DNA of 64,000 nucleotides, taken from contig CAZCCH010000005.1 in NCBI GenBank assembly GCA_964497315.1, forward strand, positions 1,885 to 65,884, in the 5' to 3' direction. The translations under genes were made by a program, and so were the position numbers. Source of the stretch: an uncultured Planctomycetia bacterium. Its GTDB lineage: Bacteria; Omnitrophota; Gorgyraeia; Taenaricolales; CAZCCH01. Of the stretch, positions 16,808-29,953 are shown one piece after another. The notes beneath the pieces were generated by a model. It did not search any database. It saw nothing but the letters and a program-made list of their open reading frames with translations, and had not been told where the DNA came from. Every line of letters begins with the position of its first letter. Positions within the stretch are counted from its first letter, which is position 1.

Positions 16808-19800
16808 TTATATATTTCGCTTAAATTCCTGAATGACTTTTAACTCTTGAAGTTTCTCTAATGTAGCCTCAAGTATAACATGGGCCTCTGTGACAAATGG
16901 CACAAGGAGTGCCTCTTTTGCTTCTTGAGCGGAGGTTGCTATATAACGTACGATTTGTGCACCTTGTGAGTAAAGCCACAACCCGGCATCTCTTGCTGAA
17001 TCAAATACCTTGATAGTTTCATCATCAGGTAGGGTTTCGTTAAGCTCGGCTATTAGGCCTCTGTAGCGCGTGTCTGAAGAAGGAACAACTGCAGCAACCA
17101 ACACACCTTCAGCAAAATGATCCCTAATACTAGCTACACCTTCAGCTAAAGAAGATGGACCGAGTATTATGCCTGTAGTTACATCAAGAGAGGTTTGACC
17201 GATTATTTCATCAGTTAAGGTTTCGGTTTCAGTGAAACGAGAGGGATCTATCTCAGCTGGAAGATAATAGTTAAATAATATCGGAAAGTAATTTGATTCC
17301 TCCCAATCATAAGTTGCGCTATGCAATGTGAAAGGAAACCTGAAGGGTTTCCCGGTATTCCGCAGGGCCATAAAGATGTTGTAGACATTATTTGGAATTA
17401 GGCTAAGCGAGGGTTCAGTTGACGATAACTTCAATAAGGCTTCATACATAGCCTCTCTTTTAAATTCCTCAGAAGCAGTTGTCCTATAATCAACCGGCTC
17501 CACGTTTGCATAAACAACTCCCCCAACCCTCAATGACTTTCTCAGGCGTTCTAATGTTTTGAATTTATCATGAAAGTATTGCGCTGTCTTACGGCAAACG
17601 ATAATTACATCAAAGCCCTCACTCAAATCATCCTGTAGTAGTTCATCTTCTTCTACATTTACTGGATAACAACGTTGTTTTATTTGTTCTAAATACCCTT
17701 CTATTTTACGCGGGGTTACATGAGATAGGCCTGAGACCATTAAACATTGTCTTACAGCCGTATCAAATTCAAAAGTAAGATCCGGTTCTTTATTGTACGA
17801 ATGGATTTCAACAGAATCTTCAAAGAGATCCATAATGCTTATTGCCGTAAGCCCTCCAGCGTCTCCTACCAATAAAACCCTTACAGGCCTTCCCAATTCT
17901 TCATGCTGCAACCTGATTTCATCGGATATGTTGTTACTGAATAACATGTCCATGTTACTAAAAGAATCTGCTAAATTATCATCTGTGCGATATGGATGTC
18001 TTCCACGCACTGGTAACAGGTTCAGGGCCAAAAAAGCATCTGCCAATGGTAATGATGCCTCCAATGCGGGTTGTTCTTTATAACGTGAAAAAACTAATTT
18101 GGCGTAATCTATAGTATCTAAAGAATTATCTACATTTCCATCAAAAGGTAGGCCAGTTAATTGGCCTATTTTCTCTAGCACAGTTAAAGCCCAAGCATAT
18201 CTATCGCTAGCGCTTAGTTTAACAATCTTGTTCCCACTCAAAAGGCTTCTGCTTAATGCTGAATCCTGAGCGCCGAGGAGTGGATTTTCCACAAAGCGGG
18301 CGGGGCCAAATCCAGTGCCCCTATCTTCTTGCCAGTAGGGATTTTTCACATTAATATACCGGCTGTTAACCTGTCTTATCTGGCCACTGCGCAACAACAT
18401 TTCAATTACATCCTTTGTTTCTGCTTCGCTATATGCCATACCTAGATTGTCCTCATTCAATAACTCTCCTGTGTCCATGGGGTGATCTGTGGATAGAAGA
18501 GATTGCCTTATGTAAAACAGCAAAGCAGTTTTTCTATTCCAGCTTTTAACTGGTCTGGATGCATCAAATTCAGCAAGTCCGACTTTCTCTGCGATAGCCC
18601 TGCCTGCGCGACTCATTGGCAAACATTGAAGCAAAGGTTGAGTTAAAGGTGTTTCGTGGGTCAAATACCCAGCTCCTATTGCAAAATCGATAGCTGCCTT
18701 ATATAGCTCCATTCCAACGCCGCGCAATTCAGGATTGTTTTTATCTCTGTTTTTCGGGGATATTTCAATAGTTTTCATTTTAATAGTACCTGTACCGTCA
18801 ATTATAATTGTGTAGGAGCCATCGACTATACTATCGTCATTTCTTGTGGCTACAATAATATATTTGCGTCGGTTAGCCTCTAAGGCATAATCGCATCCTT
18901 CCCGAATCCCAAGAAATACTTCTTTGTTGCTATAAAGCTCCTCTCGACTCCAACCAAACCTACCCTGCCTTATCTTTTCGAAATTTGGATCAAGACGTGT
19001 TAGTTGTTTTATAGTTATTTTTTCAGGCTGGTTCTCGCGTTGATTCAACACCAATACTTCACGAGGCTGTATTGCATCACCTTTTATTTCCGTAAAGCGA
19101 GAGGGAACAGCAGTCGAATTTTCAATTGCATCCAGGAAGGCTTCCAGGCCGGTAGGATGGATACCTATAATCTCAATAATTCCGGTCCCCTGATTGCTTA
19201 CATGTCTTTCGTTGCATAATACAAATGGTAATTCTGTGGGACTCCATTTGGATGCTATATCATCAGTCATTAACTCCCGGACAGTTACAATTCTGGCATT
19301 AGGAGGTAGGAAGACAGGTGCGATATTGCCTCCCAAGTTCACTATTTCTTTCAAGGGGTCAATGATAAACCGGCTGCCAGGTTTGGCGAATACCTCAATT
19401 AAATTAGAGACAGCTATATAAATTTTAACAAGGTTTTGTATGCGGGATATCAATTCATGCGATAACTCTGTAATTATACCTTTTGTTAAAAGCCCATTTT
19501 TAGCTAAATTATTCATCATGTGGGGTGAATAACGATGGACAAGGTAATCGGCTTTTGTACCGAAAACCTTTACTATGTCAACAAGACCTTTTCTGTTGAA
19601 CGCATTGCCTTCATGGACTTGCATAGATACATCAATGCCATGCTCTTTTTTATAGGACGAGGACGTCTTTTTAAATATCGGTTTTGCATTTTTTAAAACT
19701 AGCTCATCTGGATCTATTCCAACAACCTGAATTTGCCATTCTTTTGCAGCTTCAGCCCCAACAACCTCTTTCAGAATTTCAACAGAAGACCTTACAAGTT

Positions 19801-29953: not shown

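Follow-up and report, generated by a model that had tools for sequence, protein, structure and literature searches.

A stretch of 64,000 nucleotides (nt) of contig CAZCCH010000005.1, referred to here as the window, carries on its minus strand one very long open reading frame (ORF), whose protein product is called the giant below. Sequence and structural models together suggest that the giant is a Sec-exported multi-enzyme precursor that would be cut at linkers bearing an RFxE motif, probably by a protease of its own; we give this reading, in which cleavage is the deduced step, a probability of about 0.5. Roughly ten unrelated modules appear to be laid out on flexible linkers, every linker holding a peptide with the consensus [P/A/S]-[S/A]-R-F-[S/A/T/V]-E, and the motif occurs at essentially every module junction of a single ORF that also embeds a candidate protease. 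This candidate would span aa ~570–1675 (aa, amino acids) and consist of an array of HEAT repeats followed by a Cys/His domain of caspase (clan CD-like) fold with a calcium loop, termed the H/C domain.

16808..29953, minus strand: giant ORF, 4381 aa, ~490 kDa, ATG start, 13,146 nt, without a Shine-Dalgarno sequence

A recurrent motif at the module junctions

Thirteen copies of RF[STAV]E are present in the giant, against 0.2 expected from its composition and a maximum of 3 in 500 shuffled sequences. In an unbiased scan of 4-mers, RFSE was the most enriched (7 copies versus 0.05 expected, p ~1e-13), and a scan of gapped patterns placed RF.E and SRF.E at the top. The other ORFs of the window, which encode 15,765 aa, lack the motif, as do the five remaining reading frames; ~60 large control ORFs, for which the elongation factor G (EF-G) loci of Omnitrophota relatives were used, contain 0–1 copies each. 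Because the codons vary from site to site (five for Arg, three for Ser) and the likeness between sites in the DNA is limited to the 15–17 nt that code for the motif, with no tandem repeats, the motif is conserved at the level of the peptide.

The placement of the sites follows the modules. They divide the giant into segments of 18–1310 aa, each with at most one detected enzyme domain, and all 13 fall outside the domain envelopes (P = 0.003). The sequence on either side of them is significantly more disorder-prone and hydrophilic than that at random positions (TOP-IDP z = 3.2), only 2 of 5000 random sets being as extreme. The module layout had been described in an earlier note made from this DNA; the recurrence of RF[S/A/T/V]E at the module borders had not. 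The sites are as follows, with the position of the first residue of each copy in parentheses:

29798..29809, minus strand: motif site 1, RFSE (R49)
29744..29755, minus strand: motif site 2, RFVE (R67)
28847..28858, minus strand: motif site 3, RFAE (R366)
24917..24928, minus strand: motif site 4, RFSE (R1676), directly after the C-terminal GLLS of the H/C domain, in the disordered tail of the model
24848..24859, minus strand: motif site 5, RFSE (R1699)
24386..24397, minus strand: motif site 6, RFSE (R1853)
23711..23722, minus strand: motif site 7, RFSE (R2078)
22781..22792, minus strand: motif site 8, RFSE (R2388)
22043..22054, minus strand: motif site 9, RFSE (R2634)
20579..20590, minus strand: motif site 10, RFAE (R3122)
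20120..20131, minus strand: degenerate fourteenth copy, SSSFAE (S3275)
19088..19099, minus strand: motif site 11, RFTE (R3619)
18287..18298, minus strand: motif site 12, RFVE (R3886)
17228..17239, minus strand: motif site 13, RFTE (R4239)

An example of an RFxE-type peptide is KKASSSSRFSEIQPK. Autoproteolysis of the Nup98/ZU5 'HFS' type was rejected for the motif, since at four of the 13 sites Phe is followed by Ala or Val, neither of which provides a nucleophile; the same residues at these sites led to rejection of an R-x-S kinase site. Ribosome skipping of the 2A type was also discarded, the motif being too short for it, and we know of no bacterial precedent for such skipping.

The candidate protease

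The H/C domain and the residues on which its assignment depends are the following:

24929..26281, minus strand: H/C domain, aa 1225–1675, with a caspase-fold half (~1240–1420) and a zincin-like/PBS-linker-like half (~1510–1675), ending in EGLLS
25994..25996, minus strand: invariant His1320 (YSGHTGMG), candidate catalytic His, after strand E90–93 of the model
25898..25900, minus strand: invariant Cys1352 (MLSCDS), candidate catalytic Cys, after strand E122–125 of the model
25598..25624, minus strand: calcium-loop-like motif DLDGDGRPD, aa 1444–1452 (EF-hand_5 weak, E 0.05)

His1320 and Cys1352 are invariant in an alignment of 23 sequences that reaches down to 18% identity. The predicted structure has the alpha/beta/alpha, caspase-like fold of clan CD, in keeping with the caspase-like region proposed in the earlier note, and the putative dyad has the clan CD arrangement: His then Cys, 32 residues apart, each just past a beta-strand. 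Names listed with this fold call are other CHAT proteases, C11 clostripain-like enzymes, metacaspase-4, caspase-1 and legumain-like enzymes; a GTPase is excluded by the absence of a P-loop and of an NKxD motif. The calcium-loop-like motif, also proposed earlier, is present, and its pattern DxDxDGxxD is kept in many family members. A Foldseek search of the model against PDB gave no significant match, and a Pfam scan of the region gave nothing at E<=1 beyond EF-hand_5 and Ferritin noise.

When the native tail is included in the AlphaFold2 model, the fold stops at GLLS (predicted local distance difference test, pLDDT, ~90) and the next two RFSE copies, the second of which sits 23 aa beyond the first on the C-terminal side of the domain, have pLDDT 29–51; located in a stretch modelled as disordered, both copies would be exposed.

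The idea that the C-terminal subdomain is a zincin metalloprotease was dropped, HExxH not being conserved. Matches to polyubiquitin in PDB at aa ~1270–1311 were set aside as an artefact, in which a beta-hairpin-like stretch is scored against tandem ubiquitin. The stretch itself (~26011–26140, GGVTIYKTTLNGKKVTVYFDP) resembles the N-terminal hairpin of ubiquitin after a GG junction and is conserved in the family; the likeness is probably a chance beta-hairpin similarity.

Modules of the giant

Apart from the H/C domain, the features detected along the protein are:

29855..29953, minus strand: signal peptide or signal anchor, aa 1–33, the only hydrophobic segment, with export presumed
29033..29701, minus strand: HAD-type phosphatase, aa 85–307, DLDGT (Pfam Hydrolase E 7e-12, HAD E 6e-7)
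26924..28243, minus strand: HEAT-repeat array 1, aa ~571–1010 (HEAT_2 E 1e-27; BLAST matches to family members P0003 and P0004)
24476..24634, minus strand: MerR-type helix-turn-helix (HTH), aa 1774–1826 (MerR_1 E 1.9e-5, above cutoff)
23840..24391, minus strand: class I S-adenosylmethionine (SAM) methyltransferase, aa 1855–2038 (Methyltransf_31 E 1e-18; HemK/PrmC type)
23084..23584, minus strand: Ser/Thr protein-kinase-like module, aa 2124–2290 (Pkinase E 1e-8, 35.5 bits versus a cutoff of 31.7)
22298..22666, minus strand: HD/HDIG phosphohydrolase, aa 2430–2552 (HD E 4.5e-9; HDIG E 1e-5)
20591..22042, minus strand: module 10, aa 2638–3121, weak HEAT/ARM repeats, then an unverified GHKL-like tail (HEAT_2 E 1.5e-5, below cutoff)
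17504..17704, minus strand: possible second methyltransferase, aa 4084–4150, weak (Methyltransf_12 E 2.8e-4, below cutoff)

The N-terminal hydrophobic segment (aa 6–32), the sole one in the protein, ends in ALA followed by SS and is consistent with either a Sec signal peptide or a signal anchor; the signal peptide proposed in the earlier note is thereby upheld, and export would follow from it. The HAD, HTH, Ser/Thr kinase and HD modules named in that note were all recovered by Pfam. Its two HEAT arrays and two class I methyltransferases fared unevenly: the first of each is clearly matched, and the second of each falls below the curated threshold. Its GHKL-like ATPase found no match among Pfam families or PDB sequences, and the stretch aligns in register with genuine HATPase_c at a z of 2.1 only in a shuffle-calibrated alignment, which is not significant; its GNAT module likewise has no match in Pfam or PDB. 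The statement that the architecture resembles no characterised protein family holds, the giant being a mosaic of unrelated enzyme modules with no characterised full-length relative. A word-index search with the C-terminal 1259 aa returned no relatives, and one with the methyltransferase-kinase-HD stretch returned a single weak match. The description of the protein as an effector toolkit is an interpretation, since nothing in its sequence indicates a host or prey target.

Several modules have features of their own. The segment around the MerR-type HTH is strongly basic (net charge +20). The first methyltransferase, which reads HPPL at the position where NPPY/DPPY is expected, resembles mad2 (E 8e-26) of the MADS anti-phage system, and the kinase module resembles mad6 (E 8e-12) of the same system. 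The motifs of the latter are atypical (HGD for HRD, with Asn 7 residues past the Asp; DPG for DFG; AVRIEK at the position of the VAIK Lys), and the module may be an atypical kinase or a pseudokinase. The HD domain is weakly like the HD domain of Cas3. The divergent neighbour of the giant gene (30340–31497, plus strand) encodes an AAA_14 and DUF4143 ATPase that matches the PADLOC candidate defence family PDC-S01 (E 3.5e-82). Judged by these resemblances, a tie of the mad2-, mad6- and Cas3-HD-like modules and the PDC-S01-type neighbour to conflict systems is possible.

The gene, its assemblies and its genomic setting

The earlier account of the gene itself was accurate: the reading frame is never broken, no Shine-Dalgarno sequence precedes the ATG (upstream sequence acaatctgatATG), and a 386-bp AT-rich intergenic region separates the start from the divergent gene. 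Four JGI contigs (samples 3300009373 and 3300009311 among them) encode the same 4381-aa protein beside the same neighbours, and the identical protein is also found in one NCBI assembly. Source samples are the two JGI ones and ENA ERZ23499079. In an ENA scaffold whose DNA is 99.7% identical (L088), the gene is called as three genes; one break is a scaffold gap of 10 N and the other a deletion of 23 nt exactly between two AGGGGGG repeats, and neither coincides with a module border; a second ENA contig (L089) stops at the same spot as the deletion. These disruptions are not gene boundaries and are most likely assembly or poly-G artefacts. At 26048–26070 (aa ~1295–1302, just upstream of His1320), two AGGGGGG runs bracket the 23-nt segment, loss of which causes the frameshift in L088; this loss could be a poly-G assembly artefact or a real slipped-strand (phase-variable) inactivation upstream of the candidate protease. 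Promoter-like and terminator-like matches inside the ORF do not exceed the expectation from shuffled sequences.

The neighbours of the giant gene are housekeeping genes, for a ComF-like phosphoribosyltransferase, LptF/LptG, EF-G, YebC, RuvC and RuvA. The adjacent EF-G is nearest to those of Ca. Omnitrophota metagenome-assembled genomes (MAGs), at 54–58% identity, which fits the Omnitrophota origin to which the earlier note had pointed; by this measure the source organism probably belongs to a lineage of Omnitrophota that lacks a closely related reference genome. At the EF-G loci of Omnitrophota relatives there is no syntenic giant gene, and none of the public sources consulted gives the giant protein a name. 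Elsewhere in the window, and unrelated to the giant, genes for tRNA-Leu(AAG) and tRNA-Glu(CTC) lie at 2799–2884 and 3561–3638, on either side of a 224-aa ORF (2901–3575).

Relatives of the H/C domain

An exhaustive HMMER search yielded 58 clusters of H/C relatives, 12 of them below 1e-30, and three of the relatives are other giants of 5218–6545 aa. Narrower results came from a word-indexed database (one relative of the H/C region only), from scans of genomes and metagenomes for the H/C domain (no match) and from a search with a 6-sequence H/C alignment (2 loci only). One of these two loci is L087, a 2673-aa family member in which the enriched k-mers are HEAT repeat turns only. BLAST comparison of the giant with the family shows that the HEAT array and the H/C domain alone are common to relatives, the enzyme cargo being lineage-specific. 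Since this pair is the only common part, the array, whose presence the earlier note had rightly recognised, appears to be less the enzyme scaffold proposed there than a separase-style substrate-binding arm. In close relatives the H/C domain ends in a conserved EGLLS; in the giant, RFSE comes directly next.

One homologous giant has a recurring motif of its own. P0008 (6439 aa, encoded among housekeeping genes in an NCBI MAG) contains 17 copies of [SGA]SP[VILASM], against 1.3 expected, spaced 9–1200 aa apart as module borders would be, with three clustered within ~20 aa; one copy lies 6 aa past the end of a HATPase_c domain and another just ahead of a C-terminal GGIDL domain. Next to the candidate catalytic Cys, P0008 has Ala where the giant has Asp1353. 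P0064 was rejected as an informative variant of P0008, from which it has 1 difference in 6439 aa.

Two further unannotated modules are common to many family members (P0005–P0008, P0010, P0012, P0001 and L087; e.g., L084:6001-25320): an N-terminal domain (LWVNLSPYEKDRIIP) and a C-terminal domain of ~100 aa that starts with GGIDL/F. In giants of the family the H/C domain comes before the inserted cargo and the C-terminal GGIDL/F domain after it; the protein of the window has neither extra module. P0011 (MCB4756477.1, 5218 aa, 'hypothetical protein') comes from Elusimicrobia bacterium / Candidatus Obscuribacterium magneticum, and what stands between its modules is not a short motif but repeated transmembrane-hairpin blocks (TKxWAWxES...GVGAVAG). 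On the evidence of P0011, the H/C family reaches beyond Omnitrophota and includes another way of delimiting modules.

Proposed processing of the giant

In the proposed mechanism, the embedded protease would recognise and cut the RFxE linkers after export, and the modules would be freed as separate proteins: a HAD phosphatase, an HTH protein, an N-methyltransferase, a protein kinase, an HD hydrolase, a HEAT/GHKL-like module and four orphan modules. It is possible that the HEAT arm grips the extended linker and that Ca2+ is the trigger; the calcium loop suggests activation outside the cytoplasm. The freed enzymes would presumably act within a host or prey cell of the Omnitrophota-like bacterium, an intracellular site being suggested by the need of the freed modules for ATP or SAM. 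We infer, and have not observed, cleavage at the motif, the part of the embedded domain as cutter, the scissile bond, control by Ca2+, export beyond the periplasm and any target.

Three bonds are candidates for the scissile bond. An R-F cut would suit the preference for Arg that gingipain R, clostripain, metacaspases and separase show; with an F-S cut the P1′ residue would be small, as it is for many processing proteases; and an S-R cut would agree with the GLLS domain end, which is family-wide.

A number of observations weigh against this mechanism. It rests on sequence and models, cleavage not having been observed. Comparison of the H/C family profile with PDB sequences found no protease, and the domain matches no profile of C11, C13, C14, C25, C50, C80 or CHAT; as no known clan CD profile matches, it would be a new family at sequence level. 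His1320 precedes T-G and not the usual G, and in the AlphaFold model with the native tail neither adjacent RFSE docks onto the H/C domain. Most H/C family members are 1000–1600 aa long with little or no cargo, so polyprotein processing cannot be the general role of the domain. The motif of the giant is entirely different from that of P0008 despite similar active-site neighbourhoods, and two other giants with the H/C domain (P0011 and P0014) yielded no linker motif in exact, reduced-alphabet and gapped searches. No diverged orthologue of the giant was found, which leaves conservation of the motif without a comparison.

Some of these observations would suit a protein that stays whole. In an uncleaved multi-enzyme assembly, RFxE would be a structural or docking element of the linkers, such as a HEAT-bound peptide or a helix N-cap, and the H/C domain would cleave external substrates or be a pseudo-protease. 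HEAT and ARM solenoids often bind extended peptides; helix-like sequence follows several of the motifs (FSEELRKRL, FAELIKQDVESW, FSEAENADALEDF), and the model has a low-confidence helix directly past the second RFSE. The small family members, which carry the H/C domain with no cargo to free, and the undocked motif point the same way. Such an assembly is nevertheless judged rather unlikely: a common structural cap is unexpected among modules of unrelated fold, the motif is found outside the folds, in disorder-prone sequence modelled with low confidence, its R, F and E are strictly invariant, with one small residue preceding R and another separating F from E, which is more like a protease site than a linker, and the invariant His and Cys would favour a catalytically active enzyme. 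It is improbable, to a greater degree, that the linkers are cut by some other protease, either a separate bacterial enzyme or one of the host or prey (Arg-specific, for example), the H/C domain being one more cargo enzyme. The HEAT array and H/C domain are the only family-wide part, the first C-terminal motif adjoins the end of the H/C domain, and no protease gene lies near the giant ORF within the window; on the other side, host proteases activate many toxins (PMC3153235), the motif differs between two giants with similar H/C active-site regions, and P0011 and P0014 possess the domain and no motif.

Two explanations remain. If the motifs were junction scars left by the shuffling of cassettes through recombination, the mature protein would make no use of them. 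The cargo modules are wholly different between relatives, as such shuffling would predict, and polymorphic toxin systems have short conserved motifs of this kind at their boundaries (VENN, pre-toxin). This origin is nonetheless very unlikely, because the codons are varied and a likeness of ~15 nt is too short and too degenerate for homologous recombination, no spare cassettes or repeats lie nearby, and selection is clearly on the peptide. Hardly any weight attaches to an artefact, that is, a mis-assembled gene fusion or a pseudogene not expressed as one protein: the three genes called on one ENA scaffold and the contig that ends within the gene would fit, and against them stand the intact, identical ORF with the same flanks on four JGI contigs and in the NCBI assembly, the nature of the ENA breaks and their position off the module borders, an open frame of 13 kb that at 38% GC is beyond chance, and internal promoter and terminator matches at the level of shuffled sequence.

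A wider proposal, advanced tentatively as possible and no more probable than that, is that a self-cut precursor like the one favoured here for the giant reflects a cellular polyprotein strategy in uncultured bacteria (Omnitrophota and relatives). A giant gene would then be the equivalent of an operon, producing one exported chain that is cut by an embedded, HEAT-associated, caspase-fold protease of a family not recognised before, at lineage-specific motifs (RFxE here, SSPx in a relative), with specificity and motif co-evolving and the proteases forming a new branch of clan CD.

The giant genes of Omnitrophota and other uncultured bacteria are an acknowledged puzzle. Giant Omnitrophota proteins have been suspected of being cleaved, with no cleavage points known (bioRxiv 10.1101/2023.11.21.568195); the literature search found no paper on motif-delimited bacterial polyproteins or on the H/C protease family. 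The locus described here is a compact, well-assembled case: its candidate site motif is statistically unambiguous and the dyad of its candidate protease is defined, which makes the question of whether such a protein remains whole or is cleaved directly testable. If the proposal is true, it would supply concrete cleavage points, the first for 'giant genes' of Omnitrophota-like bacteria, as well as a new clan CD protease family and a rule for the computational splitting of giants into modules for prediction of structure and function. Viruses and a few toxins are known to rely on polyprotein expression, which would then also serve free-living or predatory bacteria in the delivery of stoichiometric sets of enzymes, as a prokaryotic counterpart of viral polyprotein processing.

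Comparison with known systems

The giant resembles MARTX toxins or viral polyproteins in function but belongs to neither family. MARTX and clostridial toxins have their effector domains freed by an embedded clan CD protease, in a manner 'analogous to viral polyprotein processing' (PMC3153235). With MARTX toxins and the large clostridial glucosylating toxins, the giant shares the design of a giant secreted multi-enzyme protein with an internal candidate protease of the caspase-fold Cys/His type. It differs from MARTX in its N-terminal Sec-type signal (MARTX toxins use type I secretion), in its motif (RFxE, whereas the toxins are cut at P1-Leu) and in the number of candidate sites (13, against three named for V. 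cholerae MARTX; PMC3153235). In place of the inositol hexakisphosphate (InsP6) pocket of the C80 cysteine protease domain (CPD) of both toxin groups it has a calcium loop, its HEAT arm lies ahead of the protease, and it belongs to an Omnitrophota-like organism and not to Vibrio or Clostridium. A C80 CPD with InsP6 site and beta-flap is absent from the giant, no RTX repeat family appeared in its Pfam scans, no type I secretion system genes were present among the scanned neighbours, and the recurrent linker motif contains no conserved Leu.

Separase (C50) and the TPR-CHAT/SAVED-CHAT proteins resemble the giant in that a caspase-fold domain, its dyad in the order His, Cys, comes after a long arm of helical repeats; in the giant the HEAT array (aa ~571–1010 and beyond) directly precedes the H/C domain. 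Separase cleaves after Arg, within an ExxR substrate motif in which E precedes R, whereas in RFxE the E follows the R. The giant has no match to the Peptidase_C50 signature and no sequence similarity to CHAT or Peptidase_C50, and it has an added zincin-like/PBS-linker-like subdomain and a DxDxDG loop; its domain is embedded in a secreted multi-enzyme protein, whereas the others are stand-alone regulators.

The polyproteins of picornaviruses and nidoviruses are likewise encoded by one ORF with many modules, an embedded protease (a candidate one in the giant) and a short motif at the junctions, and if the cut in the giant is at F-S, a small residue would occupy P1′ in both. In contrast to these, the giant is encoded on a cellular chromosome, where its gene is surrounded by housekeeping genes (LptFG, EF-G, RuvABC); its candidate protease is caspase-fold, not chymotrypsin-like or papain-like, and its cleavage is a deduction.

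The giant proteins of Omnitrophota ('Archaeovorins') likely come from the same phylum and also mix HEAT repeats with HAD, HATPase-like, kinase and methyltransferase-type modules. Archaeovorins are at least ~30,000 aa long, with many transmembrane segments and with C39/S8 peptidase domains (bioRxiv 10.1101/2023.11.21.568195). The giant is smaller (4.4 kaa, against 30–147 kaa) and has a single N-terminal hydrophobic segment in place of many transmembrane helices; its candidate protease is of caspase fold, with no match to C39 or S8, and, unlike Archaeovorins, it carries explicit candidate cleavage motifs.

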